Origin: Candidatus Nanohalarchaeota archaeon
GTDB taxonomy: Archaea; EX4484-52; B79-G9
NCBI GenBank assembly: GCA_030634545.1
Contig: DAOWAN010000001.1
Location: 15,010-79,009 of the forward strand
DNA: 64,000 bases
Direction of reading: 5' to 3'
The notes beneath the pieces are model-generated. The model saw only the letters and a list, made by a program, of their open reading frames with translations, was not told the origin of the DNA and did no database searches. Of the stretch, positions 12,602-48,147 are shown one piece after another; positions within the stretch are counted from its first letter, which is position 1, and each line of letters begins with the position of its first letter. A program made the position numbers and the translations under genes.

Positions 12602-13015
12602 GTGATATTGATGAATGATACGATGATTGATGATTTATTTGTAAAAAGCATTGAAAAAGACTCAATAAAGTACACTGATTTTTCAGTTGAATATAAAAGT
12701 AAAGAGGTTCTTGCAAAAAATCATGCTGATTTTTTCCTGAAATATTTAAATGGTTTAGGTAAAGGAGAATATTCTGAAAGTCAAAATCTTCGGAGTGGTT
12801 TTGAAAAAATTAATCCGAATTGTGAATGTTATGATATCAAAAAAGATGGATATGTCTCTCTCAAATCTTTTTTTGTCTTATTTGAACCAGAATCCGTACC
12901 TTCATTTGGTAAGCCTGTTAAAGTATCTATACAAACTATGGGGGGAGAAACAGAAATTTTAGAACAGTATGCTGCCTATTTAACAGATTTAAGTACTGGA
13001 TTTGAACAGGAATAG
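12602..13015 (+). CDS. hypothetical protein (137 aa)
   Basis: Intact ORF with no recognised motif. The start codon is uncertain (GTG at 12602, or a downstream ATG). Confidence 0.4.
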   Translation: MILMNDTMIDDLFVKSIEKDSIKYTDFSVEYKSKEVLAKNHADFFLKYLNGLGKGEYSESQNLRSGFEKINPNCECYDIKKDGYVSLKSFFVLFEPESVPSFGKPVKVSIQTMGGETEILEQYAAYLTDLSTGFEQE

Positions 13016-31200: not shown

Positions 31201-32263
31201 AACCAGACTGCTTGCATTTTACAAGCATTTTATCAGACTTATTCATGAAAAATGCACCGATTATTGCAGGATAGATATAATCTATCACAGATATCAAAAG
31301 ACCTGCACCAAGAAGTGATTCATAAGATGCATAATTTGCGAAGAATATAAGAATCAAGCTTTCTCTTGCTCCGAAACCGGATATTGTAAGTGGCAGTTGA
31401 CAGAGGATAATTGTTATACTCATAAAGAGCACATATTCTATGAATGGTATATAAATGCCAACTGAAAGAAAGATGATATAATAATTTACAATTATCAAAA
31501 GCTTATTCAAAAAACAATATACAGAGATCTTAAATATATTTTTGTATGCACCCCCACATTTCATATTAATTGATGATACATATGATAATTTAGAAACAAC
31601 TTTCTTTAGATGGCACGATTTTTCAATCACATTTAGAATAAACTGTTCTATCCATTTTCTCTTGAGTATGACAATAAAAAACGTAAGAAATAAAATACAG
31701 ACTATTATCAGTTGATTAACTGAGGATACTAAAATAAATGAACTAACAAGAATTATCAGAATTATATTTATTATACCCATGATGAGATGAAGTGTAACAG
31801 ATGCTGCTGAAATTTTTATAGGTATATTATTATATTTTTTGAGATATATGGATTTTACAAAGTGACCCAGTTTTAGCGGTATAACAGTTAGTACAGGGAT
31901 AACTGATGCATTAATGATTATGGATTCCCTGTAAGTTATATTATACCCAAATTGTTTCAATATCTGCATCCACACATGTGAACTAAATATTATATTTGTA
32001 CATACAGATATCACAAGACTAAGTAAAATCAGAAGAATATTTGCACCAGTTACAACTTCTATTGTTTGACCAATATTTACTTTAGAGAATATTATCCAAA
32101 ATATAGCAATTGTTATTAGTAATGTGATTAGTGTTCTATAAATGATTTTTGATTGTCTGGTAATATTAAGCATATGACGACAATCAAAAAGCTTGGGATT
32201 CATAAATTTTAACCAATATCCAATGATTTTTGATTTTTGCAATTGCATTATAAATAACAACAT
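31169..32263 (-). CDS. polytopic membrane protein, flippase-like (lysyl-PG-synthase TM-region/UPF0104-like)
   Basis: 364 aa with about 8 hydrophobic helices. It lies directly downstream of the DPM1-like GT2. The family call is tentative. Its 3' end overlaps the convergent B12-rSAM gene by 32 nt. Confidence 0.45.
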   Translation of the reverse strand: MLLFIMQLQKSKIIGYWLKFMNPKLFDCRHMLNITRQSKIIYRTLITLLITIAIFWIIFSKVNIGQTIEVVTGANILLILLSLVISVCTNIIFSSHVWMQILKQFGYNITYRESIIINASVIPVLTVIPLKLGHFVKSIYLKKYNNIPIKISAASVTLHLIMGIINIILIILVSSFILVSSVNQLIIVCILFLTFFIVILKRKWIEQFILNVIEKSCHLKKVVSKLSYVSSINMKCGGAYKNIFKISVYCFLNKLLIIVNYYIIFLSVGIYIPFIEYVLFMSITIILCQLPLTISGFGARESLILIFFANYASYESLLGAGLLISVIDYIYPAIIGAFFMNKSDKMLVKCKQSGSTNCQMRKKT

Positions 32264-32269
32264 GTGATT

Positions 32270-33010
32270 TCAGTATTGATTATTTTTAAGTAATCTTCGA
32301 ATATACAGTTTCATGAGCATTTTTATGTTCCCAATAAGGTCATTCGTACTGTATTTCGGTCTTCCTGCTCTTCGCTTGCTGAATATAATCGGTATTTCTC
32401 TTATATTACATTTTTTGTCGATGAATTCAAAGAGAATTGCCACCTGAAACGAGAAATCATCAGGAAGCACATCAAGATTTACCTTATTTATTGCGCTTTT
32501 CTTGTATAGCCTATATCCACTTGTGATATCCCTGACATTTGATTTCAAGAAGAATTTATATAGCATTGACCCAATAATAGGAAATATTTTTCTCACATAG
32601 GCATCGTTTCTCTCGCCACCGCGTATAAATCTTGAGCCAATTACAACATCAGAACCATTCTCCATGGCTTTCATAAAGCACATTATTTCCTTCGGATCAT
32701 GAGAAAAGTCTGCATCCATTTCCATGAGATATGTACCTTTTGCTTTTTTAAATCCATATTTATATGCACTGCCAATACCTTCCTTTCTGAGACGCGTATA
32801 TAGCCGTATATTTTGGTCAGTATTGCATTTTGTACTTTTAATAATCTTTTTTACAACATCAGAAGTACCATCTGGCGAATTATCATCAATTATCAATATC
32901 TCATAGCTAATCATCTCACTTTGCATGACTGCCTGTATTTTAGTAATAATCCCTTTGATGTTCTCACATTCATTATATGTTGGAATTATTATAGATATCA
33001 TGGTTTTCAC
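32270..33010 (-). CDS. GT2 polyprenyl/dolichyl-phosphate hexosyltransferase (DPM1-like)
   Basis: Motifs are ISIIIPTYNECENI, IIDDNSPDGT and MEMDADFSHDP, as in dolichol-phosphate mannose/glucose synthases. Confidence 0.85.
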   Translation of the reverse strand: MKTMISIIIPTYNECENIKGIITKIQAVMQSEMISYEILIIDDNSPDGTSDVVKKIIKSTKCNTDQNIRLYTRLRKEGIGSAYKYGFKKAKGTYLMEMDADFSHDPKEIMCFMKAMENGSDVVIGSRFIRGGERNDAYVRKIFPIIGSMLYKFFLKSNVRDITSGYRLYKKSAINKVNLDVLPDDFSFQVAILFEFIDKKCNIREIPIIFSKRRAGRPKYSTNDLIGNIKMLMKLYIRRLLKNNQY

Positions 33011-34002
33011 GTTATGACTCTGACAGGAGTAAGTGCACTAAGTCTGAATGCCATCAGATAGCTTAATTCCAGTGACCCACAGAACCCACACCCACTGCAT
33101 TTGACACCAGGCATATGATCAAACGCTTTCTTAAACCCACCACCCGGTCCAGCACAATTGTATACTTTTTCTGTATACTCTATCCTGTCGCAAGGTATCA
33201 CATCTCCATTTGGCTGTACCATGCAAAATATTCTGCCAGCAGCACAGGTTATATTTTCGTATCGCGGCCAGTTATAGATGTGATTCAACCCATCAACAGT
33301 ATTTCGTATGTGTATATTGCCCTCTCCTTTTAGTTGAATCAGCTTTTCAATGCATTTTTTGAAATCTTCTTTTGATGGAGATATAGAACCCATACCTTTT
33401 TTACCTCTATATAGTTCCTTAAGTGGCTGTAAAGCTACAACTGTATTGAACTGGCGCGCTTTCTCAAGAATAAAGTCAATATGACCAATATTATGCTTCG
33501 TAAGTGTTGTCGCAAATGTGAACCGTATATTATTCTTTTTGCATACTTCAGCAGCCCCTATTACCGCATCATATGTATTCCCGCCCCTGATCATCTCATG
33601 GACATTTTTTGGTCCGTCCAGACTGAGTTTGATAAGATCCAGATTTCTGATCTCTCCTACCTTTTCACTCACAAGCGAACCATTCGAGTTCATACTGACA
33701 GAGATATCCTTAGTCTTACAGTAATCTATGATTTTCCCGATATCTTTCCTAAGCAATGGCTCGCCGCCGCTGAATGATATCCTCTGCGTACCGAGTTTTG
33801 ACATCTCGTCAATGACCGAGAATATTCGTCTTGTTGACAGTTCTTTTGAAGAATCTGCAGGAGCGCACCATAAATTGCAGTACAGACACTGCTGATTACA
33901 TCTGCTCGTCAGATTCCAGCGAACCGCAAGAGGCGTCTTTTTATTGAACACTTTTGCGCCTGCAATTGCCATACCGGACTTTATTTTATTTTTTAGTTTC
34001 AT
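33007..34002 (-). CDS. radical SAM/SPASM-like enzyme, paralog 1
   Basis: Motifs are NLTSRCNQQCLYCNLW (CxxxCxxC) and FSGGEPLL. C-terminal auxiliary Cys motifs are CAAGRIFCMVQPNGDVIPCD and CSGCGFCGS. The ATGA start/stop overlaps the downstream GT2 gene. Confidence 0.8.
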   Translation of the reverse strand: MKLKNKIKSGMAIAGAKVFNKKTPLAVRWNLTSRCNQQCLYCNLWCAPADSSKELSTRRIFSVIDEMSKLGTQRISFSGGEPLLRKDIGKIIDYCKTKDISVSMNSNGSLVSEKVGEIRNLDLIKLSLDGPKNVHEMIRGGNTYDAVIGAAEVCKKNNIRFTFATTLTKHNIGHIDFILEKARQFNTVVALQPLKELYRGKKGMGSISPSKEDFKKCIEKLIQLKGEGNIHIRNTVDGLNHIYNWPRYENITCAAGRIFCMVQPNGDVIPCDRIEYTEKVYNCAGPGGGFKKAFDHMPGVKCSGCGFCGSLELSYLMAFRLSALTPVRVIT

Positions 34003-35587
34003 TCAACCCACCAGATGATTCTGCACCAGGTATTATTTCGTATATCTTATATCTGTCACCAGAGTAATATAGTTCTTTATCATAGTCTTTTATGACTTCA
34101 CAGAAGCGCACATAATAGTTCAATTTACAATGTTCTTCAAATTCATCTTCAAAATCAATAAGATATATGTTGCATTTTGTATTGCTGTTATTGCAGACAT
34201 TTAAAATAGGTATAGCCCCCTCATTGTGGAGCTGCCATGCAGTATGTACGTTTTGTGGTGGATAATCCCGATATAGGAGTTCAAATGCATTCTTTGATTG
34301 CGGGTCAACAAATATCAGATAGCTATATGATTTATTTGTATTATTGAATATCGCATATATCTCTGGTAGTCTTAAGTCAGTCCAGCGCAGTGGTTGAGCA
34401 ACAAAATATTTGCAGTCTCCCATGGGTTTCTGGCACTCTATTGTTATGTATAACGCTGACATGAGTACAATTACTGCCAAAATGAGAGATACAATATTTT
34501 TATATTTTGTTTTAAGGAGTTTTGAAACCGAGTATGATTCTAAAATAATAAATGGCAGTACGAAAAATAAAAAGTATCTGGTCCCGATGTGTTTATTTAG
34601 AATGAAAGGTATCAGAACTATCGAGAGCCACAATATTAAAAAAAGTATCTGTTCACGGATTCTTATAATGACCTTTTTATCTAATAGATATAAGACAGGC
34701 AGAGTCAACATGAGAAATGTTATGTGAAAATTGTATTGAAATATTTCCAGCAGCGAGATAATATTTTTAGTCAGATATGTTGCGCCGAATTGTCCTTCAT
34801 AAAAATTTTCATGCGTTATCTCCGCAATATAAGGCAAAGTAAGTAAAATGCATAAAATAGCATATATACAGATATACATCTTATTTTGCATCTTGATTGG
34901 ACTTTTTTTGTGGATAAAATATAGAATCAACACCAATAGCAGGATAGTTTCTTCTTTTTTTATCAGACCGCAAAAGAGTATTGAAATATATGTCAGAAAA
35001 TACATCTGAGGCTCTTTTGACTTCACAGAAAGCAGGATAAGTATCAGACTGAGCATTATAAAGAAAGATGTAGTTATTTCCACTCCATGCGTACCAGAAA
35101 AGAAGATATGCCATGGAAGCAAACAAAGAATAAGTGCACTCACCATTGCCGCTTTTATATCCTTGAATAACAGATATGTAAGCAGAAACAGCATTATGAT
35201 AGAGAGACTGCCGATAATCATATCAAATAAATGCGATGAGAAGACTATATCCCCAGTCAATGAATATATTGGTGATATGAGAAGCGAGTATCCGCGCGTA
35301 TCCAATGCCGCAGGTATTTTTTGATCTTCTGATATATATATAACAGCATCCCTATGCGACCAGACAGAGACACCGGTAATTGTTTGCATTGGAGAATATG
35401 CGAAGCGCAGGATGAAACCGAAAACAGTTATGATAAGTAAGATAGCCAATGTTTTTTTGCTTATTTTTCTGTACTCGCTTGTAATTATTTTATGGTTTTT
35501 CAAAAGGAAGACAATTAATAGAGAAAAAACAAGGATATAGTAATACATTCTTGTTGCAGGGTCCAGAAAAAAAAGATTATAAGGCAT
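33986..35587 (-). CDS. large polytopic membrane protein, GT-C-like (GT39/ArnT-type candidate), paralog 1
   Basis: 533 aa with about 11-13 TM helices and a soluble C-terminal domain. It is clearly paralogous to 35649..37217 and 38474..40216 (shared FFLD..TRMYYY, TRGYSLL.SP.YSLTG, LLPWHIFFSGT and KSKEP segments). Confidence 0.5.
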   Translation of the reverse strand: MPYNLFFLDPATRMYYYILVFSLLIVFLLKNHKIITSEYRKISKKTLAILLIITVFGFILRFAYSPMQTITGVSVWSHRDAVIYISEDQKIPAALDTRGYSLLISPIYSLTGDIVFSSHLFDMIIGSLSIIMLFLLTYLLFKDIKAAMVSALILCLLPWHIFFSGTHGVEITTSFFIMLSLILILLSVKSKEPQMYFLTYISILFCGLIKKEETILLLVLILYFIHKKSPIKMQNKMYICIYAILCILLTLPYIAEITHENFYEGQFGATYLTKNIISLLEIFQYNFHITFLMLTLPVLYLLDKKVIIRIREQILFLILWLSIVLIPFILNKHIGTRYFLFFVLPFIILESYSVSKLLKTKYKNIVSLILAVIVLMSALYITIECQKPMGDCKYFVAQPLRWTDLRLPEIYAIFNNTNKSYSYLIFVDPQSKNAFELLYRDYPPQNVHTAWQLHNEGAIPILNVCNNSNTKCNIYLIDFEDEFEEHCKLNYYVRFCEVIKDYDKELYYSGDRYKIYEIIPGAESSGGLNETKK

Positions 35588-35648
35588 TATACTTATAATA
35601 GCCTCTCATTTTTTTATATCTCTCATAAAATATTGTATTGATTGCTTT

Positions 35649-37217
35649 TTATTGTGTGATGTTTGCATAATGATATATTTCATATATATCTCCAGAATAA
35701 TATAGTTCTCTTTTACGATCTATAAGTATTTCTTCAGCAAGTTGCAGGTCAATATCATCTTCAAAGAAAATAAGATAGATGTTATAGTTTCCGTATTGGT
35801 TCACAGCTTTATCCTCAATACAGCCCTCGTCAGAGATAGTTTGGCTATTATAGTATTTCCATGCTTCACCATCATCCAATACAATGTATGGATGACAATT
35901 GCCATAAAGAGTAATATACGCTTCCTTTGCCTGATTGTCCAGAAACAAGACCAGCATATCTTCCTTGTTTGTATTATTTAATATCGCATGTATCTTGGAT
36001 AATTTTGTGTCAGTTTTTTCCAGAGGTTGTGCTATAAGGTATTTACAGTTACTGTTTTCTGCGCATTCTGAATAGACATATGTAACAGAAAAAAGAAGCG
36101 CAGCCACTAAAATCAGGGATGTCTGTATTTTATACTTTGTCTTTAAAAGACCTGATATTGCAAATGATCCGAGTATTATGAAGGGCACTAAAAAGAATAC
36201 AAAATATCTGGTATGTATATCTCTATGAATCAGGAAAGGAATTATAGTTATTGAAAACCATAAGACTAAAAATAATATCTTTTCACTCTTTTTGATAATT
36301 ATTTTTTTGTTTACCACATACAGAACAATAGGTGCAAGCATAAGCAATATAATGTAGAAATTGTATTTGAATATTTCTAGTATAGATATTACGTTTTGAC
36401 TTATGTAACCTGATTCTAATAGCCCTTCCTCAATCTTACCATGCAGTGCATCAATTATGAATGGTAAAAATAGCACAGCAGCTGTAAGTAAATATGTAAT
36501 TACATGATATTTTCTTTGCATTTTTACCGGGTTCTTTTTGATAAGAAAATAGATGATAAAAACAATAAGCAAAATCATTTGTTCTTTTCTTACCAGAGCG
36601 CAGAACAATAATGATATAAATGCAAGAAAGTAAATGTCTGGTTCCTTTGACTTAATCGAGAGGAATATCAATATAATAGAGAGCATTCCAAAAAATGACG
36701 CTGTTATCTCCATACCGTGCGTACCTGAAAAGAAGATATGCCATGGAAGCAGGCAGAGTATGAATGCACTAATCATCGCCGCTTTCTGGTCTTTGAAGAG
36801 TAAGTATGTGAGCAGGAATAGCATTATGACAGAGAGACTGCCTACTACAATGTCAAAAGTATGCGCAGACCATACTATGTCCCCAGTTAATGAATATAGT
36901 GGAGACATTAAAAGAGAGTATCCTCTCGTGTGCATTTCTGAGCGTATAATCTGTTCTTCAGATATTTTTACAGCAGCATACCTATTGGACCAGACTGAAA
37001 CATTTGTTATTGTCTGCATAGGTGTAAACGCGAGGCGCAGTATAAACCCAATAAGGACTATGATAATTAGTGCATACCATGTTTTTTTGCTTATTTTCGT
37101 GTATTCAGTTGCGATTAATTTATGATTTTTAAAAAGAAGCATAACTAACAGAATGAAAATAAGCATATAATAGTACATTCTCGTTGAGTTTTCAAGAGAA
37201 AAAAAATCAATTATCAT
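35649..37217 (-). CDS. large polytopic membrane protein, GT-C-like, paralog 2
   Basis: 522 aa with the same conserved blocks as paralogs 1 and 3. Confidence 0.5.
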   Translation of the reverse strand: MIIDFFSLENSTRMYYYMLIFILLVMLLFKNHKLIATEYTKISKKTWYALIIIVLIGFILRLAFTPMQTITNVSVWSNRYAAVKISEEQIIRSEMHTRGYSLLMSPLYSLTGDIVWSAHTFDIVVGSLSVIMLFLLTYLLFKDQKAAMISAFILCLLPWHIFFSGTHGMEITASFFGMLSIILIFLSIKSKEPDIYFLAFISLLFCALVRKEQMILLIVFIIYFLIKKNPVKMQRKYHVITYLLTAAVLFLPFIIDALHGKIEEGLLESGYISQNVISILEIFKYNFYIILLMLAPIVLYVVNKKIIIKKSEKILFLVLWFSITIIPFLIHRDIHTRYFVFFLVPFIILGSFAISGLLKTKYKIQTSLILVAALLFSVTYVYSECAENSNCKYLIAQPLEKTDTKLSKIHAILNNTNKEDMLVLFLDNQAKEAYITLYGNCHPYIVLDDGEAWKYYNSQTISDEGCIEDKAVNQYGNYNIYLIFFEDDIDLQLAEEILIDRKRELYYSGDIYEIYHYANITQ

Positions 37218-37236
37218 CGTATCATCAATCAGCTTA

Positions 37237-38196
37237 TTACTTTTTTAAATACTTTATAAACAAAGCGATTTTTAGTTGAAAAAGCAGATTTAATTCAACA
37301 TTTCCAAAACAATTACATCTGCTGCATACAGGAAAATTAAGTTCTTGAAATCCCTTAAGGAACCCACCTCTGACATTAGGAGGATTCTCTCTGTTATTGC
37401 TTCTACTGCATGCATACATGCTTCCGTCAGGTTCTATCCTGCAAAATATTTTACCTGCACTGCAATTATTGTAATTAAAACCCTCAGGCTTGATAAAATG
37501 TCTTAGGCAATCTGTTGAGTTCATCACATTTTTTTCCTGAGTTAGCTTTCTAATTGCATCTGTAAACTTCTTTTTTTCAGGAATTATGTTTTTAACACCC
37601 TTAGCTGAAAATGTATATGTGTCTACAGGTTGGAAGAGAACACCGACATCCATATCTCTTGCAATTTTCAAGACCTCGTCAAGATGTTCAACATTGTACT
37701 TTGTTATCACAGTTGTGATGTCTACGTTTAAGCCATGCTCTTTTGCAGTCCGGATACCTTCAATTGTTTTTTTGTATGTTCCTTTCCCGCGATGTATTTC
37801 ATGTATCGACTTATCACCGTCAAGACTTATTGAAAGACGATTCAATGGCATTATGTCATCAATTTTTCTCTTCACAAGAGAGCCATTAGAGTTCATTGTG
37901 ACATAAATTTTGCATTCCCTTGCATATTGTATTATTTGTCCTATATCTTCTCTTAATAACGGTTCTCCACCTGTCAGAGAGAGTACTGCTGTCTTTGCAT
38001 TTTTCATTTCTTTGATTAGTCTTAAGATTTCATCTGTTGAAAGTTCATCAGGATTGTTTTTCCATACAGCACAGTACTTGCATGTATAATTACAGCGCCA
38101 CGTTAAAACACAACTGACAATGACAGGAATTTTTTCCTTAAAGAACTTTGCTCTTAGAATTCCTGTCCCTGCACGCAATTTATTTATGAGAGCCAT
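37237..38196 (-). CDS. radical SAM/SPASM-like enzyme, paralog 2
   Basis: Motifs are VLTWRCNYTCKYCAVW and LTGGEPLL. The C-terminal motifs are CSAGKIFCRIEPDGSMYAC and CSRCNCFGN. It is a paralog of 33007..34002. Confidence 0.8.
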   Translation of the reverse strand: MALINKLRAGTGILRAKFFKEKIPVIVSCVLTWRCNYTCKYCAVWKNNPDELSTDEILRLIKEMKNAKTAVLSLTGGEPLLREDIGQIIQYARECKIYVTMNSNGSLVKRKIDDIMPLNRLSISLDGDKSIHEIHRGKGTYKKTIEGIRTAKEHGLNVDITTVITKYNVEHLDEVLKIARDMDVGVLFQPVDTYTFSAKGVKNIIPEKKKFTDAIRKLTQEKNVMNSTDCLRHFIKPEGFNYNNCSAGKIFCRIEPDGSMYACSRSNNRENPPNVRGGFLKGFQELNFPVCSRCNCFGNVELNLLFQLKIALFIKYLKK

Positions 38197-38357
38197 ATCT
38201 TATCTTTATTGTAAGACATATTTAAAATCTTAGCTCTGCTATCTCTTAGACTCTCTTACTTTCAACATCATGATTTCACAGATATAGAATCTATTGACGC
38301 TATGAAATTCAGACATATCACTCAAATTGTCGGATTTACGAGATTTTATGATACAAG

Positions 38358-38441
38358 TCACCCGTAACGATATATCTCATATTTACCCCCGGGATAATAC
38401 ATTCTCGCATGAGTATCCAGAAAAAAGATATCCATTATCAT
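38358..38441 (-). pseudogene. 27-codon relic of a collapsed GT-C-like paralog
   Basis: It translates as MIMDIFFLDTHARMYYPGGKYEIYRYG*. This is the paralog-family N-terminus (FFLD.ATRMYYY) joined directly to the family C-terminus (YSGD.YEIY.Y). Confidence 0.5.
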
Positions 38442-38473
38442 AATATTTGCACCAAAAAACAATAACCATCCAT

Positions 38474-40216
38474 TCATGAGATAAGTTTCTCATAATAGTA
38501 TATTTCGTACTCATCTCCTGAATGGTATATTTCTCTTTTGCGATCTTTTAATATTTTTTTAATGCATCGCAGGTATTCGAAATCATAGAACATTTCAAAA
38601 TCATCTTCAAAGAGAATAAAGTATATATTATATTCCCTGTATCCACTTACAGATTTATGATCAAAGACAGAGCTAGTTGGATAGATTTCTTCGTCATATC
38701 TAAAAAAAAATCCAACGCAATTTTCAAGATCAGACGAATTGAAAGTACAACTAGACAGATTAAAGTCAGTTGTTTTATTGGTTCCATCTGCTCTGTTAGT
38801 TTCAACATTAACTATATTTTCAACACGGGATTCATTAGATATAACACTATTATAAAAATAACATGCCTCATCCACATTCAAAACAATATATCGATTATAT
38901 TTCCCAGAATAAGTAATATATGCCTCTTTTGTATCTCCATCTACAAACAGAACAAGCATACTTTTTTTGTCTGTATTATTTAATATGGTCTGTATCTGTG
39001 CAAATTTTGTAACAATTTCATCTGGAGACTGTGCATAAATGTATTCACAATTGCTGTCTTGCGTACAATCCGAATATACATGAATTGCTGACAAGAGTAA
39101 CGCCGCTATCAAAATAAGGATGACTTTTTCTTCATACTTTGTTTTAAGGAGACCTGATATTGATGATGACCCAAGTATTATGAATGGAACTAAGAAAAAT
39201 ATGAAGTACCTGTTATCTATATCATTGTGAATCATAAAAGGAATTATATTTATTGAATACCATAAAAGTAAGAATAATATCTGTTCTGTTTTTTTTATTA
39301 TGTTTCTTTTGTTTACCAGATATAGAACAACAGGTGCCACTATGAATAGTATTATGTAGAAGTTATATTCAAACATTTCAAGCACAGAGATTATATTCTG
39401 ACTCATATAAACAGAACCGATATCCCCCTCATCGATCTTACCATATAGTGCATCTATAAGAAATGGTATGACAAGAATCACAGCCATAAGCAAATATACA
39501 ATGATATTGATTTTTTTTCGTATTCTTATCGGATTCTTTTTGATAAGAAAGTAAATAATGAGAACCAGAAGCAAAATCATTTCCTCTTTTCTTATCAGGG
39601 CGCAAAACAGCAATGATATAAATGTGAGAAAATAAATCTCTGGTTCTTTTGATTTTATTGAGATGAGTATCAGTATTATTGATAGCATCACGAAGAATGA
39701 TGCTGTTAGTTCTTCTCCCTGTGTACCGGAAAAAAATATATGCCATGGAAGGGCACTTAGTATGATTGCGCTAATAATTGCTGCTTTCTGATCCTTGAAG
39801 AGCAAGTATGTAAGCAGGAAAATCATTATTATAGAGAGACTGCCTATTACGATGTCAAAGATGTGTGCAGACCACATTATATTCCCAGTCAATGAATATA
39901 GAGGAGCGATTAAAAGAGAATACCCTCTTGTATGCGTATCCTGAGGCATCATATGTTCTTCTGAAATAGATACAGCAATATTCCTACTGGTCCCCATAAA
40001 AATCTCTGTTGTCTGCATCTCTAAAAAGGCGAAGCGCACGATGAATCCAAGAATAGTTATGATAAATAACATTAACCATGTTTTTCTATTTATTTTTCTG
40101 TATTCACTTGTGATTAGTTTACGATTTTTCAAGAGAAGTATCATCAATAGCAAAAATACAAATATATAATAATACATTCTAGTTGCAGCATCCAGAAAGA
40201 AGAAATCATAAAGCAT
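38474..40216 (-). CDS. large polytopic membrane protein, GT-C-like, paralog 3
   Basis: 580 aa with the same conserved blocks. It has a longer, insertion-bearing C-terminal soluble domain. Confidence 0.5.
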   Translation of the reverse strand: MLYDFFFLDAATRMYYYIFVFLLLMILLLKNRKLITSEYRKINRKTWLMLFIITILGFIVRFAFLEMQTTEIFMGTSRNIAVSISEEHMMPQDTHTRGYSLLIAPLYSLTGNIMWSAHIFDIVIGSLSIIMIFLLTYLLFKDQKAAIISAIILSALPWHIFFSGTQGEELTASFFVMLSIILILISIKSKEPEIYFLTFISLLFCALIRKEEMILLLVLIIYFLIKKNPIRIRKKINIIVYLLMAVILVIPFLIDALYGKIDEGDIGSVYMSQNIISVLEMFEYNFYIILFIVAPVVLYLVNKRNIIKKTEQILFLLLWYSINIIPFMIHNDIDNRYFIFFLVPFIILGSSSISGLLKTKYEEKVILILIAALLLSAIHVYSDCTQDSNCEYIYAQSPDEIVTKFAQIQTILNNTDKKSMLVLFVDGDTKEAYITYSGKYNRYIVLNVDEACYFYNSVISNESRVENIVNVETNRADGTNKTTDFNLSSCTFNSSDLENCVGFFFRYDEEIYPTSSVFDHKSVSGYREYNIYFILFEDDFEMFYDFEYLRCIKKILKDRKREIYHSGDEYEIYYYEKLIS

Positions 40217-40437: not shown

Positions 40438-40887
40438 ATGAAAAGTGATGATAAAGCATCTTTTTTGAAAAATGTGGACTTTGATTTAAGTAAAAAAGTT
40501 ACCCGGATTAATTTGAATTCTATGCTTTACCCGCGCACTGTTGTGATGAGAGCAGCATACTCATTTACTGACAGTTTCGATGTCGCTGTCGAAGGAGACG
40601 ATTCATCCAGCATTGTTTTCATCAGGGATAATGGTAATGATAAGCTGACACAAGCGGATTTTGAGGACATTGCCTATCGTTTTTATTCCGAACTGATTCA
40701 TGCAAGTGTTGAAGAGACTCAGGCGCGAAGATACGCAGACACAAGAAATGCACTGATAGGAGCTGCACTGAAATCATTATTTCCTATTACTGGTTCTTTG
40801 AACATACCCAAAGACACAAAATCTCCCCCAATTAAAGAACCTAAATTAAAAAATAATATCAAATCTACAACCAAAAACTGCAAATAA
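40438..40887 (+). CDS. small soluble protein, HxsD-like candidate
   Basis: 149 aa. The pattern YPRTVVMRAAYSFTDSFDVAV...IVFI...FYSELIHASVEE...R.ALIGAAL recalls the His-Xaa-Ser system protein HxsD as I remember that family. It lies directly upstream of the Trp-repeat peptide. This assignment is from memory only. Confidence 0.4.
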   Translation: MKSDDKASFLKNVDFDLSKKVTRINLNSMLYPRTVVMRAAYSFTDSFDVAVEGDDSSSIVFIRDNGNDKLTQADFEDIAYRFYSELIHASVEETQARRYADTRNALIGAALKSLFPITGSLNIPKDTKSPPIKEPKLKNNIKSTTKNCK

Positions 40888-40975: not shown

Positions 40976-41299
40976 TTGCAAGTGCGTGGTATTGTGAATA
41001 TTAAAGATAAACTAAAGAAGATAAAGCAAATGGACTTATGGAAACCCGGTGACAATGAAAAGACCGGTGTTGTAAACGGGCTGATTCTCTTGGGTGCTGC
41101 TGTTGGAGCCACGCTGTCTTTCCAGGGTCATGATGCTTGTGCAGATGCACCCCTCTGTAGTAATGATGAATGGGGCAACTGGTCAGACTGGACTAATAGC
41201 TGGAACAACTGGTCAGACTGGACTAACTGGAGTGACTGGAGTGATTGGGAGCATTGGGGCAATTGGGGAAACTGGGGAAATTGGGGAAACGGTGACTAA
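40976..41299 (+). CDS. Trp-Xaa-(Asn/Asp/His) repeat peptide, candidate RiPP precursor
   Basis: The frame is open from TTG 40976, but the most likely start is ATG 41030 (MDLWKPGDNEK...). A hydrophobic helix (GLILLGAAVGATLSF) and HDACADAPLCSNDE are followed by WGN WSD WTN S WNN WSD WTN WSD WSD WEH WGN WGN WGN WGN GD. Synonymous codon variation preserves this frame. Confidence 0.65.
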   Translation: MQVRGIVNIKDKLKKIKQMDLWKPGDNEKTGVVNGLILLGAAVGATLSFQGHDACADAPLCSNDEWGNWSDWTNSWNNWSDWTNWSDWSDWEHWGNWGNWGNWGNGD

Positions 41300-41429
41300 C
41301 CAGTTTGATTGAAATACAGATTATAATAACAAAAGCCTGCAAATGGCTTTATACCGCTACAGACCATGCATGGCAATGTCCTGATTGTATAGTTCAGGTC
41401 GTTACTATCTGGACAAACTGAACCAAAAA

Positions 41430-41767
41430 CCAATAGACCTTAACTATCCGGGCGAATCTCAAAGATTCGCTGGATTTCGCAAATCGTACCGATTTCCTAT
41501 ATCGCCAAAAACGCATGCGTTTTTGCGACACTAAAATTCCCGAGGAATTTTAAGAGTTGCGAAATTAGGAATTGGGTAGCAATTTCGCAATCATAAAAAT
41601 CACAAAGTGATTTTTAATGATCCTAACAAATCACATTGATTTGTTGGATGCTAAAATTGCATCGCAATTTTAAGCATATGGAAAAGTCATATAGTCCATT
41701 TTGAAGACGATAGTCTTCGAAAGCTTGGCATGTAATGCCATGAAATAGTTATGACTTTTACTATATT
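41430..41767. repeat. mosaic hairpin-array intergenic repeat, copy B
   Basis: It shares its 5' end, a 98-nt identical block (41595-41692) and its 3' end with copy A. It shares a 117-nt block (41476-41592, 6 mismatches) with copy C. It ends 2 nt before the radical-SAM gene start. Confidence 0.85.
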
Positions 41768-41769
41768 AC

Positions 41770-43605
41770 GTGAACAATATGTTGAATTCAAAATTATATT
41801 GCGCTTTAGGTTATGCCTGTAATAATAACTGCCTTATCTGTGTTGTTGATTCTGAAAAAAAAGCCAAAGCAAACCTGCAGACCGTTGAAATTATTAACTA
41901 TCTAAAAATACTGGATACAAATCCCGAGATAAAGAATATTGAGTTTTCAGGTGGTGAACCTACAGTCAGACATGATTTATTTTATATACTTGACTGGGTG
42001 CACCAGCATCATCCAAGAATAACTTATACTATTTTCAGTAATGGACGACGCTTTTGCGATATTGATTTTGCAAATAAAATCTCAGGATATCCTGTAAAGG
42101 ATCTTCTTATTGCAATTCATGGCAAAGATGCAAAGACACATGATTTATTGACACAAAGAAAAGGAAGTTTCAATCAGACATTTATGGGCATCAGAAATCT
42201 TTCTGAGAACAAGGTTAATGTTGTCCTGAAGATCATACCCAACCAGCTGAATTATAGACAGATCCCGGACATTGTAAGGATGTTTGTCAGCCATTTCCCA
42301 TATGTCAGGACCATGACTATCAATGGAATTGATATCGGAGGTTGTGCTCTTGATAATATCGATAAAATAGGTCTTCGCCTTACAGATGCGATACCATATA
42401 TCCAGAAAGGACTGGACATCGCAAATGAGCATGGTCTGAAAGTTTGCACTTATTCAATACCAGAATGTCTGTTTGATGCAGAACATAGAAAATATGTGGG
42501 TCCCCAAAAGAGTCCCCTGTACAATTACAAGTCACCATTTCACGAACTGGACGACAAAGGTGACGAGTATGGATTTGGTCCTCTCTGCAGTGCTTGTTCT
42601 GCAAAAGACAACTGTGCCGGCTGCTGGAACACTTACTTAAGTGCTGTCGGGACCGATGAATTAAAACCGATAGTCAGACCAAAAAGCAATCCCTTATCAT
42701 CACCTAAACCCATGCAAAAAAATCGTTATGTTATTGAGATAACCGGTGCCTGTAATAATGATTGTATTTTCTGCCTGTACAACGGCAGCAGAAGTGAATC
42801 TATTTCATATGAAGATATTGTCTCACGCATACAAAGTTTTAACATGAAAAAGGGAGAGCAAGTATCATTATGTGGAGGTGAGCCGACATTAAGCATGGAT
42901 TTTGTAAAGATAATAGACTATGCTGTTTCAAAAGGGTTTCGCATCTCTGTAATATCAAACGGGAGAAAATTTTCAGATAAGCTATTTACAGAACAGGTAA
43001 TTAATGCCGGAGTATCTCATATCACTATTGATATACACGCTCATACAAAAGAACTTCATGACTCCATAACCCAAAAAGATGGGAGTTTTGATGAGACTGT
43101 TCGCGGCATAAGAAACCTGCAATCTACTGGCGTGGCACTCACACTCAAAGTGATAGTCAATAAACTGAATTATAGATATCTAAAAAACATCATTGAATTC
43201 ATTGCTGTAAATTTCACAGGTATAAAATCAGTCGTTTTTGCATCCATCAGTATCAGAGGCAGTGCATTGAAGAACAAAGAACAAGCAATTGTGAAATTGA
43301 ATGAAGCAGCACCATACATACAAAAAGCAATAGATAAAGCACAGGCATCAGGCATTCGTGTTGATCTGGATATGTTTCCATATTGTATTTTTGAACATAA
43401 GTACTTTAAGCAGATCCGTATGAGAAAACAGGACAATTTATTTCTTCTGGATGATAGTTGTGTTGTGAAACCCGACAATGCTTCAAGTGTTAAAGGCAGC
43501 TTTCCATTTTGCAGGGAATGCCGGTTCGCCAATAAATGCCCAGGTGTATGGAAAAACTACAGGGATATTTACGGTGAGAGTGAATTTAAATGTATTCACA
43601 AATGA
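41770..43605 (+). CDS. fused tandem-duplicated radical SAM enzyme (two HxsC-like halves)
   Basis: 611 aa. Half 1 has CALGYACNNNCLICVV, and half 2 (from about residue 315) has EITGACNNDCIFCLY. The halves align over SGGEPT, SNGR.F, TQ.KGSF..T..GIRNL, LK.I.N.LNYR and APYIQK. Each half ends with a Cys motif (CSACSAKDNCAGCW and CRECRFANKCPGVW). Confidence 0.8.
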   Translation: MNNMLNSKLYCALGYACNNNCLICVVDSEKKAKANLQTVEIINYLKILDTNPEIKNIEFSGGEPTVRHDLFYILDWVHQHHPRITYTIFSNGRRFCDIDFANKISGYPVKDLLIAIHGKDAKTHDLLTQRKGSFNQTFMGIRNLSENKVNVVLKIIPNQLNYRQIPDIVRMFVSHFPYVRTMTINGIDIGGCALDNIDKIGLRLTDAIPYIQKGLDIANEHGLKVCTYSIPECLFDAEHRKYVGPQKSPLYNYKSPFHELDDKGDEYGFGPLCSACSAKDNCAGCWNTYLSAVGTDELKPIVRPKSNPLSSPKPMQKNRYVIEITGACNNDCIFCLYNGSRSESISYEDIVSRIQSFNMKKGEQVSLCGGEPTLSMDFVKIIDYAVSKGFRISVISNGRKFSDKLFTEQVINAGVSHITIDIHAHTKELHDSITQKDGSFDETVRGIRNLQSTGVALTLKVIVNKLNYRYLKNIIEFIAVNFTGIKSVVFASISIRGSALKNKEQAIVKLNEAAPYIQKAIDKAQASGIRVDLDMFPYCIFEHKYFKQIRMRKQDNLFLLDDSCVVKPDNASSVKGSFPFCRECRFANKCPGVWKNYRDIYGESEFKCIHK

Positions 43606-43625
43606 TAATATCATGTGATTGATTT

Positions 43626-45047
43626 ATGGATGACAAAACATTTGCACTGAATGAATATTTTACAAAATCTTTAGCAGATAATCGCATTCTTGTAACTACA
43701 CGGCATGGTTCATGGTGTGAACTGGACAAAAGAGAGTATGACTTGCTACAAAGACAGAATTTTGAACACGACAAAGTCCTGTTTAAGAAACTAAAAGACA
43801 TAGGCATTATTCTGACAGAAAGTAATGTTGAATCTGTTGTGAAAAGGACTGCCCTGATGTTTGATGATTACAGGCAGCGCAATTTTACATGCGTGATTAA
43901 CCTCACAAATAAATGTAACCTGGATTGTGCATATTGCCTTGCAGAATCAGGTCCAAATCAGGATGAACAGGATATGTCTATTGAGAATATGTATTCATTG
44001 GTAAAATTTATTAATGGCTCTCCATGGGATAGCATAGATATTGAATTCCAGGGTGGAGAGTCTACCCTGCGATTTGATCTTATCAGGAAGTTTGTTGAAA
44101 TTATTGAGAGTAATCTGGATAAGCATAAGGAAATAAGACATTTTGTACTGGTCACAAATCTCACCTGTTTTAATAAAGAGATTGCAGATTATATTGTCAA
44201 AAAGAATTTTCGGATTGGCTCTTCACTGGATGGACCAGAGAAACTGCATGATTTTCAAAGGGCATTTCCTGACGAAAGTGGTTCTTATGAAAAAGTAGTT
44301 TACTGGGCAGATTACCTGAAAAAACGAGGAGTACATATCGGGTTTTCATCTACAATCACAAAAAAAAGTCTTGAATTCGGTGCGCGCGCAATTATCGATG
44401 AATACATGAACAGAGGTATGGAATATGTTATGCTCCGACCGTTTACATCATGTGGAAGAGGTGAGGACAGGACTGACCTTGTGATGGAACCAGAGGATTT
44501 TTTTAAGTTCTGGAAAGATGCTGTCGATTACCTTGTTGAACTTGCAGATAACGGAATATACATGTCTGAAAAGAATCTTGGACAGATGATAAAAAATATT
44601 TTTACACCTTACAGAACATATATGTGCCTAAAAAGACCATGTGGTGCTGCTATTTCCCAGATGTCCTTTATGCAGGATGGCCCGATATATGCATGTGATT
44701 CCGGGAAAAGGATTGAAGCATTGAAGATCGGCAACTATGTCAGTGGAAAATATGCAGATACATTACTAAATAGTCTGCAACTTAGGACTTTGTCTTCTGA
44801 AGCGCAGCCATTGTGTGATACATGTGTATATACTGCATTTTGCGGTACCTGCATAAGCAGGATGTTTTCAAGCTGGTCTGATTCTGTAGGAAGAACACCA
44901 AGGGATTTTGACTGCAAAGTTCACAAGTGGATGTTCACATACATTTTTAAGAAAATGAATGATCCTCGATATGCGAAACTATTTAGCAGACTAGCTGGCG
45001 CCGGGCGCGGTGATGATACACCATGCAGAACGCATGAGGTCAGTTGA
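43626..45047 (+). CDS. radical SAM/SPASM-domain peptide-maturase-like enzyme (HxsB/anSME-like)
   Basis: Motifs are INLTNKCNLDCAYCLA (CxxxCxxC) and FQGGESTL. SPASM-type C-terminal motifs are CGAAISQMSFMQDGPIYACDSG and CDTCVYTAFCGTC. Confidence 0.85.
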   Translation: MDDKTFALNEYFTKSLADNRILVTTRHGSWCELDKREYDLLQRQNFEHDKVLFKKLKDIGIILTESNVESVVKRTALMFDDYRQRNFTCVINLTNKCNLDCAYCLAESGPNQDEQDMSIENMYSLVKFINGSPWDSIDIEFQGGESTLRFDLIRKFVEIIESNLDKHKEIRHFVLVTNLTCFNKEIADYIVKKNFRIGSSLDGPEKLHDFQRAFPDESGSYEKVVYWADYLKKRGVHIGFSSTITKKSLEFGARAIIDEYMNRGMEYVMLRPFTSCGRGEDRTDLVMEPEDFFKFWKDAVDYLVELADNGIYMSEKNLGQMIKNIFTPYRTYMCLKRPCGAAISQMSFMQDGPIYACDSGKRIEALKIGNYVSGKYADTLLNSLQLRTLSSEAQPLCDTCVYTAFCGTCISRMFSSWSDSVGRTPRDFDCKVHKWMFTYIFKKMNDPRYAKLFSRLAGAGRGDDTPCRTHEVS

Positions 45048-45920
45048 ATGGATCTTTTCTGGCTAATCAAATTACTTAGTATTGTTATTGCCCTTCGTTA
45101 TCTGAGGATATTTAGCATGCATTCTGTTGCAATTTATTTAACCGGGGCATTTGCCATGGTTTTTCTGAAACCAAGAGCGCATTATTTCGTACCAGAATAT
45201 ATTTTAATAATGACAGTTTCATTGTTTTTTGCTTATATTTTATCTCTTTCAGTATATGACTTTTTAAGAAATATCAAAAGTATTAAATTTGAATCCATTT
45301 TGAGTAAAGATATTCTTGAAAGATATGGCGACTTCTTTTTTGCCATGTTTGTGATTTCATCCATATTATCTTTTTTTAATCTCCCATTTATCGGGACAAT
45401 ATTTTTTATGATAGTATTTTTTATTGCTCTTGAGATTATCCGCCTTAATATGCATGGCGAAACACAATGGTTCTTTAATTACAGAATATGGTCCGCTGTC
45501 CTTTTTTTGTATTTTGTGTTCTTTAACCAGTTCCCGGTTCTTCTGATTGTTATTCAACAAAGTATTTTTCTATGTGGACTGTTATTTATCTTCTCATTCG
45601 TACGATACTTCAACGTATATGCCTGCCCATTAGATGAACTCAAGGCAGGAATGGTTCCTGCTGAAACAATCATAAAAAAAGGCAGTACATTTACCAAGGA
45701 AAATGTGCCATATATCTCCCCTTTTGTTTATCTCAGGAAAAAAGTGATTAATAAGATATTTAAAAGACATGAACTGATAACTCCTTTCAGGCACTTGACC
45801 AATGACTCCATCAAGATATTGAGAACTAAGACACATTTCGATATTTTAATGGTACAAAGAACTATAGATATGAGCATTTTTTTAATTTTAGGCATCATTG
45901 CAACCTATTTTGTCAGGTAA
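45048..45920 (+). CDS. polytopic membrane protein of unknown function, translationally abutting the SPASM enzyme
   Basis: 290 aa with about 6-7 hydrophobic helices and a basic soluble C-terminal segment. The ATG follows the upstream TGA directly (45047/45048). Confidence 0.55.
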   Translation: MDLFWLIKLLSIVIALRYLRIFSMHSVAIYLTGAFAMVFLKPRAHYFVPEYILIMTVSLFFAYILSLSVYDFLRNIKSIKFESILSKDILERYGDFFFAMFVISSILSFFNLPFIGTIFFMIVFFIALEIIRLNMHGETQWFFNYRIWSAVLFLYFVFFNQFPVLLIVIQQSIFLCGLLFIFSFVRYFNVYACPLDELKAGMVPAETIIKKGSTFTKENVPYISPFVYLRKKVINKIFKRHELITPFRHLTNDSIKILRTKTHFDILMVQRTIDMSIFLILGIIATYFVR

Positions 45921-45969
45921 TTTATTGTATAGTGAAGGCATGAAATAAATGAGCAAACATCACAAAAAA

Positions 45970-46320
45970 CCAATATGCCTTCGTCTATCCGGGAAAATCT
46001 TCGATTTTCTGGATTTTCGAAATGTTCACCCATTTCGAATTTCGAAAATTGGAAATTTATGATAAATTTTCAAAATTTCGCAAATCGTTCCGATTTCCTA
46101 TATCGCTAAAAACGCATGCGTTTTTGCGACACTAAAATTCCCGTGGAATTTTAAGTGTTGCGAAATTAGGAATTGCGTAGCAATTCCGCAATCCTAAAAT
46201 TGCAAAGCAATTTTAAGGATTCTGGCAAATCCACAGATTTGCTGAATCATAAAAATAACAACGTGATTTTTAATGATATGGCAAGGCACTGTACTCAAGT
46301 TATTAGTGCCTTGACTATAG
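45970..46320. repeat. mosaic hairpin-array intergenic repeat, copy C
   Basis: The 5' end ctatccggg plus hairpin plus tggat matches copies A and B. The 117-nt block 46077-46193 matches copy B. Additional modules include ttcgaaatg-N6-catttcgaa, ggaattgc-gta-gcaattcc, aaaattgc-aaa-gcaatttt and gcaaatc-cac-gatttgc. It lies between convergent genes. Confidence 0.85.
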
Positions 46321-46335
46321 ATACATTGCATCTGA

Positions 46336-48147
46336 CTAACAAGCAGAATCCGTAGTATGTATACCAGTGCATGAATTACCATCACAATCATTATCTTCTA
46401 CTTTATCAATAAGGATATAAAACTGAAGTGTCGGATTCACCCACTGATTTGTGCTAACATCATAATATTTGTATTTTGCATCTGTAATCTTTACAAGAAC
46501 TTTGATATGTTTCAAAGCATAAAAGTGACCATAGGTCACAGTACAGGTTACTTTACGACACTTAATGGGATTGCCATCAGTGCCACAGTCACCATAACCA
46601 CACGTGCAGCTACTCACACTACAATCACTTTTCATATGATCATGATATGTCAGATAAGCATCAGATCCAGTCTCTACATTATCCCCGCCAGTGCATTCAT
46701 CCGTCCCGGAACCGAAAGAGGTATGATCATTTGTATGACCATCTGCACAGTCCATTCTAATACTTACAGGACCAACGAACTCCCACACCAGATCATCAGA
46801 ATTATAAATCGTATTAAGATTAGTTTCAGCACTATTCAGAGCAGATTGAATAATATTTAAGAAATCATTCTCATCATATTTATCCGTATCATCATTAGGA
46901 CACAAAGGTTCACAGCTATCACAACAACCACCCAGACAGTTACCACTACACTCATCGCAACAATCACGCGTTTCACTTTCACGATGATAGTCATCAAGAG
47001 CATTAAGCCCATCAAATACCTTGTTTTTTATGAGTGTATCAAGATTCAACAAAAGATATTCACCTGCATCACTAAGCGCATAATGCCTGACTTTGATCTC
47101 CTCTTCTATCAGCCCGGAACTCGTTATTGTTACAAGATTATCATCCGGTTTTCCAAACAGGTCTTTTACTGAAAGTGTTATGCCATCTTCCTCAGACCAT
47201 ACTATACCTTTTGTGAAACTACCGGGAATATATATACCCTGCAGTGGTTTGATTTCTGTAACGATATCATTTTCCAGTTCGGAATTTTTTTCGGTAAGCA
47301 GCGTTTCCATATTAGCATGATATTTATTAAGATTTTCTGTAAACAGTTCATTTTGTGCATGTATAATATTATTATCATAAATTGTAATACCTATTTGCTT
47401 TATTACTGCAACCTCATCTACTTCACCAATTGAATTAGTACCATTGAACTGTATAGTCAATGGACATTCATTTCCAGCCGCAAGATTACCTGCACCAATA
47501 TCAGTTATTATGTACTCATATGTCCCGTCATAGGTTATTATATTTGGAGTCGGAATTACCGGTTCAATGGTAATCCCAGGACCCCCTGTAATCTGCACTT
47601 CTCCTTTCTTTATCATAATCAGATTGACAACCATGTGCATATCATATACATCATCAGCTAGTTCCTCTATATACTGTTGAAGTTCACCATCCTTATTAGA
47701 CTTAACGCAATAGTTGAGTTCCCCCACCAGAATATTAGGATCTTTAGCTACCAGATATGGCACTCGCATATCTGTTCTCATGCAGCCCGGAAGCGCCCAA
47801 TAAGGTATCGCTGTAGATCCGCTTTCAATTCTCAGTCTGGGTCCTGTACCATCCACATAGCCATCCGCATTCGTATCGACAAGAGTATCCTCTGGAAAGT
47901 TACCACCCGCCATCAACTCTTCATGCGTTTCCATCAATGAATGAAATGCCGCTGTCTTCTCAAAACCCTGCTTTATATTCTGGATGTTTTTGTCCATTGT
48001 AAGGCTGAAGTATTTATTGTAAAGATTAATTGATTCCTTTGTACCCCATATTAATTCACCGCTTACTCTTAGAATCATGACACCAAGTACAACCATTATA
48101 ATAAATACACTTATCATTACCGTCATATTTGCTTTATTATAGTTCAT
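46336..48147 (-). CDS. large Cys-rich surface protein with pilin-like N-terminal helix
   Basis: 603 aa. The N-terminus is MNYNKANMTVMISVFIIMVVLGVMIL. It contains dense Cys clusters (RDCCDECSGNCLGGCCDSCEPLC) and is the last gene of the minus-strand pilin-like operon. Confidence 0.6.
   Translation of the reverse strand: MNYNKANMTVMISVFIIMVVLGVMILRVSGELIWGTKESINLYNKYFSLTMDKNIQNIKQGFEKTAAFHSLMETHEELMAGGNFPEDTLVDTNADGYVDGTGPRLRIESGSTAIPYWALPGCMRTDMRVPYLVAKDPNILVGELNYCVKSNKDGELQQYIEELADDVYDMHMVVNLIMIKKGEVQITGGPGITIEPVIPTPNIITYDGTYEYIITDIGAGNLAAGNECPLTIQFNGTNSIGEVDEVAVIKQIGITIYDNNIIHAQNELFTENLNKYHANMETLLTEKNSELENDIVTEIKPLQGIYIPGSFTKGIVWSEEDGITLSVKDLFGKPDDNLVTITSSGLIEEEIKVRHYALSDAGEYLLLNLDTLIKNKVFDGLNALDDYHRESETRDCCDECSGNCLGGCCDSCEPLCPNDDTDKYDENDFLNIIQSALNSAETNLNTIYNSDDLVWEFVGPVSIRMDCADGHTNDHTSFGSGTDECTGGDNVETGSDAYLTYHDHMKSDCSVSSCTCGYGDCGTDGNPIKCRKVTCTVTYGHFYALKHIKVLVKITDAKYKYYDVSTNQWVNPTLQFYILIDKVEDNDCDGNSCTGIHTTDSAC

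Follow-up and report, generated by a model that had tools for sequence, protein, structure and literature searches.

The Correia elements (NEMIS) of Neisseria have terminal inverted repeats of about 24-26 bp with 5'-TA-3' termini and target duplication; they fall into two main classes, of about 107 and 155 bp, the difference being an internal stretch of some 50 bp, and no transposase is known for them (PMC2229807). Integration host factor (IHF) sites, promoters and RNase III processing have all been documented in these elements (PMC2649163). Here we analyse a stretch of 64,000 nt from a Candidatus Nanohalarchaeota archaeon (GenBank assembly GCA_030634545.1, contig DAOWAN010000001.1, positions 15,010 to 79,009; hereafter the window, numbered from its first nucleotide), in which two arrays of short hairpins, B and C, lie within and directly behind an operon predicted to be of Hxs type. 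These arrays are very probably copies of a mobile element that is small and non-coding (a miniature transposable element with inverted repeats, or MITE), and not repeats specific to the gene cassette between them. Correia/NEMIS is the closest analogue: like it, the archaeal family has two classes, of 103 and 157 nt, that differ by 54 nt in length, as well as many intergenic copies, which often abut genes. Unlike it, the family resides in archaea, shows no sequence similarity to Correia elements and grows by short perfect hairpins, to as much as 392 nt.

Other described elements share one or another of these features. RUP of Streptococcus pneumoniae is about 107 bp long, AT-rich and inserted at TA (PMC2229807, PMC3049150), and BOX, also of the pneumococcus, is modular and ranges from 67 to 637 bp (PMC3049150). 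RUP has terminal inverted repeats and nested insertion into other mobile DNA in common with the archaeal family; its candidate partner is IS630-Spn1, an insertion sequence (IS) with similar ends, and, unlike the archaeal family, it is not modular. BOX, the bacterial interspersed mosaic elements (BIMEs) and the archaeal family all place conserved end modules around a variable number of independently folding internal modules, but BOX repeats a single module (boxB) in tandem whereas the internal modules of the archaeal family are diverse hairpins. BIMEs are made of repetitive extragenic palindromic (REP) units, are linked to Y1 transposases and, in contrast to the archaeal family, produce no TA duplication. 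The Rickettsia palindromic elements (RPE) and the palindromic coding repeats of Methanocaldococcus jannaschii insert in frame and keep the reading frame open (PMC2229807). One copy of the archaeal family, D, resembles RPE in being in frame, the one such case seen. Among archaea, the Sulfolobus MITEs (SM1, related to the IS630 family) have reportedly been proposed, in work by Redder and colleagues in 2001, to rely on the transposase of an IS acting in trans. The Sulfolobus SM elements arose from known ISs by internal deletion, whereas the family described here belongs to another phylum, has another sequence and has no known parent IS. From Correia, RUP, BOX and RPE it is set apart by its archaeal hosts, by the lack of sequence similarity, by the unusual variety of its internal hairpin modules and by very well-kept stems. 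In the full-text literature we found no description of this MITE family, and nothing specific on MITEs in DPANN or Nanohaloarchaeota. We regard it as a new modular, TA-duplicating MITE family of a known type, comparable to Correia, RUP and BOX.

Copies of the element and their insertion sites

B and C are dense runs of perfect short palindromes, the first in the gap between 41299 and 41779 and the second after a stop codon at 45920. The whole window contains 16 perfect hairpins with a stem of at least 8 and a loop of at most 5, against about 7.3 expected per 64 kb from composition-matched block shuffles, and 14 of these 16 are confined to the 983 nt taken up by B, C and a third copy, A. When stems of at least 7 are counted, A, B and C hold 3, 6 and 9 hairpins, respectively, as against 0.13-0.19 in per-element shuffles. 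As single strands of DNA, the two copies fold to -79.8 kcal/mol (B, z -11.4) and -83.4 kcal/mol (C, z -9.8). Only two perfect hairpins with a stem of at least 8 lie outside the MITE copies: one at 12715-12735, AAAAAATCA-tgc-TGATTTTTT, whose style resembles that of the MITE modules, and the palindrome ATATCATGATCATGATAT at 22357-22374.

The window carries four copies of the element, of which one, D, is decayed (Table 1). The outermost TA dinucleotides of B, at 41388-41389 and 41764-41765, are its presumed target-site duplication. C is the largest copy seen; it begins 7 nt past the stop codon of a membrane-protein gene and ends 16 nt before the stop codon of the convergent gene. A is situated between two minus-strand genes and is hence antisense to both. 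A block of 125 nt is common to B and C at 94% identity (46075-46199 in C), and A and B have 103 nt in common at 98% identity (1396-1498 versus 41590-41692); internal modules therefore pass between copies and give the arrays their mosaic structure. A preliminary description of the region, which was confined to B and C, had already recognised the repeats as real and mosaic. The hairpins that it named are present where it placed them, as are the six differences that it listed for 41476-41592, including the tac/ttc and cga/cgt loops and the swap between alternative stems. In its extents for the two copies, the left starts were set 42 nt too far to the right and the left-end hairpin was missed. Its statement that B fills the whole gap has to be corrected, as B takes 378 of the 479 nt, and the two copies that it described are joined in the window by A and D.

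Other classes of repeat or RNA gene do not account for the arrays. The hairpins are mutually different and irregularly spaced, at 21-47 nt, and thus do not form a CRISPR array. Searched against Rfam, the whole window was without a match at the gathering threshold and 41300-46400 without one even at E<=1, and a tRNA scan found no tRNA.

The element is dispersed among related archaea. A scan of genomes, one per species, with the commonest internal module, TAAAATTSCNNNGSAATTTTAAG, yielded 66 loci. In 53 of them, from 10 archaeal metagenome-assembled genomes (MAGs), the module lies within the same larger unit with conserved left and right ends; the remaining 13, which are bacterial or other hits, have neither end and were rejected as chance palindromes. 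The 10 MAGs (Guaymas B72_G9, AB_03_Bin_104, AB_03_Bin_175, CSMAG_1788, CSMAG_321, CSMAG_1486, CSMAG_1430, MEGAHIT-group-1.727, SFP3_US_04_2 and SRR21487743_concoct_152) derive from uncultivated marine-sediment archaea and are labelled 'Ca. Nanohalarchaeota' or 'archaeon' in GenBank. A metagenome scan with the terminal-repeat motif returned 68 contigs, 62 of them in one Guaymas metagenome, and many of the matches were at contig ends. The preliminary description had named further copies and insertion-site polymorphisms as the checks to be made; the former are provided by these 53 loci and 62 contigs, and the latter by the six site pairs described below. One short-read contig, L001, is identical to 41699-46152 of the window and breaks off within B and within C, as assemblies do at multi-copy repeats. 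The window is a normal chromosomal stretch, with genes for DnaJ/GrpE, pilus T2SSF proteins, glycosyltransferases, diphthamide synthase and methylenetetrahydrofolate reductase (MTHFR), and is 71-82% identical in nucleotide sequence to contigs of these MAGs and metagenomes across several kb. Two pattern scans of IMG/VR viral contigs produced chance matches only, with neither element end, and the element was without a match among PLSDB plasmids and INPHARED phages.

The boundaries of the element can be read from six pairs of orthologous filled and empty sites, the flanks of which are 84-95% identical. With the element written as TATAGT...ACTATA, the empty site is exactly TA in three of the six pairs; in the others it is TAT, TTA or GT, each accounted for by an adjacent substitution. 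The element proper is therefore TAGT...ACTA, and the TA target is duplicated on either side. The first pair alone was ambiguous, and the duplication was settled with the five more. TA is found at both ends in 61 of 70 copies, while two copies have a direct CA...CA. No site in our sample was filled in two different MAGs, and this lack of filled/filled orthologous pairs indicates turnover and counts against ancient fixed elements; a comparison of element and flank divergence as a test of selection likewise had no filled/filled pair in the sample to use. Taken together, dispersal, terminal inverted repeats, TA duplication and filled/empty sites argue for a MITE, and the family is probably still active, or recently so, because its insertions are polymorphic among related genomes.

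Copies of the element also insert into one another. Three copies sit in the left end of another copy, at the TA of GTTAC-TA-(A/T)ATGGAC (for example L080, 122-224), which looks like a self-targeting hot spot. A different copy (L123, 3303-3405) occupies the palindrome centre (ttttgaac-TA..TA-ggttcaaaa) of another dispersed repeat, about 150 nt long and unrelated to the MITE, more copies of which are present in L124, L052, L089, L119, L039 and L044. At a further site (about 6330 in L018, compared with 2955-3111 in L019) one MAG is filled and a related MAG keeps 7 nt of the element end; a few flank bases are also gone, and the site is read as a deletion remnant, not as a clean empty site. The synteny of L063 was followed in search of an empty site for the window, and there homology stops at the element.

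Copy D lies in frame inside a PMT_2 glycosyltransferase gene (38474-40216, minus strand), where it encodes an insert of 53 aa. Protein alignments show no such insert in two tandem paralogues or in a homologue of another genome, and the reading frame runs on past D into the conserved C-terminus. A 99%-identical protein on a short public contig stops within the 53-aa insert, probably at an assembly break. The surrounding region, 33007-40216 on the minus strand, comprises three tandem PMT_2 paralogues with 50-63% identity. Behind two of them there is in each case a radical-SAM gene (33007-34002 and 37237-38196), so that a gene pair is amplified locally.

Anatomy of the element and covariation of its stems

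Each end of the element comprises a terminal hexamer and then a subterminal hairpin, in whose loop a motif is conserved (for subfamily 1, ACTA..TGGAC). Hexamer and hairpin make up the terminal inverted repeats, which are imperfect, measure about 28 nt and begin with TATAGT. Two end subfamilies can be distinguished, subfamily 1 (TATAGTTAAGGTCGTTACTAAATGGAC) and subfamily 2 (TATAGTCAAGGCATGAAATAAATGAG), and the left and right ends of any copy always belong to the same one, that is, the ends change together. The 157-nt core has the order TATAGT, P1, CTATCC, P2, P3, P4, TATA. P1 has a 12-bp stem and, within it, a loop of about 36 nt that is rich in A, P2 is exemplified by GGGTGAATC-ttc-GATTCACTGG, P3 has the form GGATCC-TAAAATTGC-ata-GCAATTTTA-AGGAT, and an example of P4 consists of GAAAAGCCAT, a 14-nt loop and ATGGCTTTTAC. 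The minimal 103-nt form joins P1 straight to P4, without P2 and P3, and longer copies gain extra short perfect hairpins either between P2 and P3/P4 or inside the loops of P1 and P4.

Two features of this modular structure deserve separate mention. The 54-nt block of P2 and P3, by which the 103- and 157-nt forms differ, has TA on both sides, and the 103-nt form retains TATA at the junction, an arrangement that resembles the excision or insertion scar of a nested unit. A further recurrent hairpin module, tttttcatcg...cgatgaaaaagctt, accompanies the left end of some copies; it is directly upstream of the left end in L010, L042 and L051 and inside the P1 loop in L012 and L049, and a weak similarity to it occurs at 32183-32234 of the window.

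The stems show compensatory change. For a set of 19 core copies with a consensus structure of 43 pairs, 96.1% of the cells were paired, compared with 82.4% in shuffles and 30-44% in slid registers; compensatory double changes were seen in 24 of the 43 pairs, compared with 14.2 in shuffles and 3-6 in slid registers. Neither observed value was reached by any of 500 shuffles. Strong compensatory covariation was found in four core stems, in agreement with the constraint on the stems that the preliminary description had suspected from B and C. Conservation of sequence as such is seen in the linkers (CTATCCGG, CTGGAT and ATATGG) and in the P1 loop (CCAAAAACCAA); the 3-nt loops vary freely.

Wobble pairs are rare, with 12 G.T against 7 A.C mismatches in 756 cells. 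The excess of G.T is not clear, and strand-specific pairing of the RNA type was rejected for this reason. The orientation of copies to flanking genes is near random (14 co-directional, 9-10 antisense, 7 convergent and 5 divergent); an apparent co-orientation with genes in a small first sample, 9 versus 1, was gone in this larger one. Given stems that are nearly all Watson-Crick and an orientation that is near random, complementarity is therefore held on both strands. A strand-symmetric need at the DNA level, or templated correction within the hairpins, fits these data better than a strand-specific RNA.

The Hxs-type operon and competing explanations

The genes around B and C appear, from matches to protein families, to encode an Hxs-type system (Table 1). 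The precursor-like product ends in 13 Trp-Xaa-Xaa repeats (WGN, WSD, WTN and similar) instead of His-Xaa-Ser. The ATG of the HxsC-type gene lies 13 nt beyond the end of B, and homologues of the product of the following gene carry the source name HxsB. A collinear HxsD-precursor-HxsC-HxsB-membrane operon, with the same four convergent neighbours, was found in two related loci, L068 (HxsB 73% identical) and L069 (64% identical), whose precursor orthologues retain the N-terminal part. No copy of the element is present in either locus (35 kb in all). In L068 the precursor and HxsC genes are 51 nt apart, and the membrane-protein gene is separated from the convergent gene by 15 nt there and by 43 nt in L069, with no element between. 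Since these collinear operons are without the elements, B and C are best explained as insertions specific to this lineage that entered short spacers of an operon already in place; they would have taken place independently of each other at two intergenic sites. B splits the operon, so that the HxsD and precursor genes fall outside the segment bracketed by B and C. The specific link between repeats and cassette drawn in the preliminary description is thus not supported, as the repeats are dispersed mobile DNA and both copies are missing from the orthologous operons.

Table 1. Copies of the element, parts of copy B and predicted genes of the Hxs-type operon in the window
Feature	Position	Strand	Remarks
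MITE copy A	1314-1526	+	213 nt; end subfamily 1
MITE copy D	38657-38816	-	decayed core of the 157-nt type; positions 1-156 of the core hidden Markov model (HMM), E=6.8e-16
HxsD-like gene	40438-40887	+	TIGR03976, 40 bits, below the curated cut-off; PF27806 on orthologues
Precursor-like gene	40976-41299	+	likely Met start at 41027; orthologues in L068 and L069
MITE copy B	41388-41765	+	378 nt; end subfamily 1; nhmmer left end E=1.2e-20
B, left end with P1 hairpin	41390-41447		
B, P2	41452-41470		
B, module block common to C	41474-41598		
B, hairpins after module block	41594-41616, 41625-41645, 41652-41672		the last is P3
B, right-end hairpin P4	41680-41761		loop holds two nested extra hairpins, 41699-41722 and 41726-41740
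HxsC-type maturase gene	41779-43605	+	two radical-SAM domains; TIGR03977, 299.8 bits versus a cut-off of 267.9; Pfam
HxsB-like radical SAM/SPASM maturase gene	43626-45047	+	TIGR03978, 300 bits, below the cut-off of 370
Membrane-protein gene, last of the operon	45048-45920	+	no family match
MITE copy C	45928-46319	+	392 nt; end subfamily 2; nhmmer left end E=1.4e-19, right end E=2.5e-9
Convergent neighbour gene	46336-48147	-	syntenic in L068 and L069

Several other explanations of the arrays can be weighed against this background. One is that they represent a selected portable module, either a bidirectional terminator-insulator composed of oligo-T and hairpins or a single-strand scaffold, with accretion at its centre. 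We consider this a minority possibility, on the unlikely side. If it were true, the module would allow insertion among closely spaced genes to be tolerated, or even to be of use, in very compact archaeal genomes, and the perfection of the stems would be maintained by selection or by intrastrand templated repair.

Somewhat less likely is that the arrays are selected cis-acting signals, B an attenuator or processing site and C a bidirectional terminator. Archaeal RNA polymerase terminates at oligo-T, and many of the hairpins are followed by T4-T5 runs on both strands; B lies between precursor and HxsC and C between convergent genes; the stems are constrained; and copies of the element are often 1-40 nt from stop codons. 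The orthologous operons, however, manage with spacers of 51 nt and 15-43 nt that contain no element, and the attenuator logic which the preliminary description had proposed as common in RiPP (ribosomally synthesised and post-translationally modified peptide) operons is thereby contradicted as an ancestral feature. The element is found, moreover, in all gene arrangements and orientations, even inside a coding region, and its insertions are polymorphic between related genomes. An effect as a cis-acting signal could be a by-product, but not the origin of the element. With B, some 378 nt of hairpins, in which T4-T5 runs occur several times, separate the precursor from the maturases, and both B and C may, as such a by-product, alter transcription locally; this could come about through the hairpins and the T4-T5 runs that follow them on either strand, or through a long structured leader.

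Another possibility raised earlier, that a dimeric protein binds DNA at these palindromes, arrayed with TAAAAT-N9-ATTTTA as half-sites, is improbable. The outer TAAAAT/ATTTTA of several modules is indeed conserved at fixed spacing. Yet the inner N9 is palindromic though its sequence varies (TGC/GCA, TCC/GGA, CAC/GTG, TC/GA), as fits pairing and not base-specific recognition, and covariation is free in the stems of P1, P2 and P4, so that it is complementarity and not stem sequence that is conserved.

Very little probability attaches to the view that the elements are genes of a family of structured non-coding RNAs. Covarying stems and conserved linkers would be expected of such genes, but the Rfam search was negative even at E<=1, the copies are oriented at random to neighbouring genes, G-U is not in excess over A-C, and the copies tolerate translation; TA duplication and empty sites, for their part, are those of DNA transposition. 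We judge as equally improbable a REP/BIME-like or IS200/IS605-derived palindromic element, moved by a Y1 (HUH) transposase via single-stranded hairpins. The element is a mosaic of short palindromic units, its hairpin-bearing ends adjoin a conserved terminal hexamer (some copies have TGTAGT), and its nearly pure Watson-Crick stems show no strand asymmetry in the mismatch counts given above, all of which would suit such an origin. Against it stand the TA duplication at insertion sites and ends that are inverted, not direct, repeats of 28 nt; beyond TA, no conserved tetranucleotide or pentanucleotide lies 5' of the left end, and no Y1 transposase was seen, although no systematic search for one was made.

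That B and C, which have the same orientation, lie 4.9 kb apart and hold the 125-nt block in common, are boundaries of a composite transposon or recombination module carrying the radical-SAM and membrane genes, as the preliminary description had also suggested, is barely credible, given that B is inside the operon with HxsD and precursor beyond the bracket, that the genes on either side are collinear with the element-free L068 and L069, that the outer ends would combine a subfamily-1 left with a subfamily-2 right end, and that B and C each have TA...TA flanks of their own.

Proposed mobilisation and biological meaning

As copies of a MITE, B and C would depend on an enzyme encoded elsewhere. 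Duplication of TA, 2 bp in length, is the hallmark of IS630/Tc1-mariner transposases, and the element would be mobilised in trans by a TA-duplicating DDE transposase, most likely of this type.

Several points weigh against the MITE reading or parts of it. Neither the window nor about 800 kb of related loci yielded an autonomous partner or a transposase: Pfam scans of the open reading frames (ORFs) of the window gave no transposase, and an all-against-all BLASTP comparison of ORFs in the loci gave no multi-copy transposase-like family. The assignment to IS630 draws on the TA duplication as its one line of evidence, and the IS5 group, with duplications of 2-3 bp, is also a candidate. The bases flanking the duplicated TA are asymmetrically biased: of 67 copies, 52 have T at -6, 41 have A at -2 and 46 have T at +3, which is unexpected for cut-and-paste insertion by a symmetric transpososome. 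Near-perfect stems and hypervariable loops are not what neutral decay of a MITE predicts, and some constraint or templated repair acts on them. Finally, the frequencies of the size classes (30 copies of 103-104 nt, 23 of 155-166 nt, 13 of 197-223 nt, two of 272-278 nt and two of 378-392 nt, the last being B and C of the window) are biased, as the loci were gathered with patterns from the element itself.

Two candidates for an autonomous relative were tried and rejected. Distant pairs of left and right ends enclosed genes for a geranylgeranyl reductase and an ATPase, and no transposase. An IS-like element of 1.69 kb beside a MITE left end (L146, 95-1781) proved unrelated and is itself inserted into a P3-like MITE hairpin. 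It has two tandem DUF1670 ORFs (280 and 267 aa), perfect inverted ends of 19 bp, AGTGTCATATGACCCCTAC, and a target duplication of 9 bp, ATCGCAGAT; it is present in multiple copies in the Guaymas metagenome, and its ends also occur in L089, L092/L003, L119 and L124.

One repeat of another kind was noted in the window: the 838-aa ORF at 15650-18166 on the minus strand contains, at 17468-18127, at least six tandem repeats of 87 nt (29 codons) that are up to 98% identical.

The hosts of the family are uncultivated archaea with small genomes, and its copies break the short-read assemblies of this lineage. End motifs, TA duplication and the 103- and 157-nt cores now offer an explicit model with which such repeats can be masked and annotated, and a tempting but wrong reading of B and C, as a regulatory or mobility signal of a RiPP operon, is removed from the annotation. 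The in-frame copy D suggests that the element may remodel proteins as well. With near-perfect stems that covary and a structure that grows by modules, the family is a candidate system for the study of hairpin maintenance in mobile DNA, and it lends itself to the question of whether compact genomes draw terminators or insulators from such elements.

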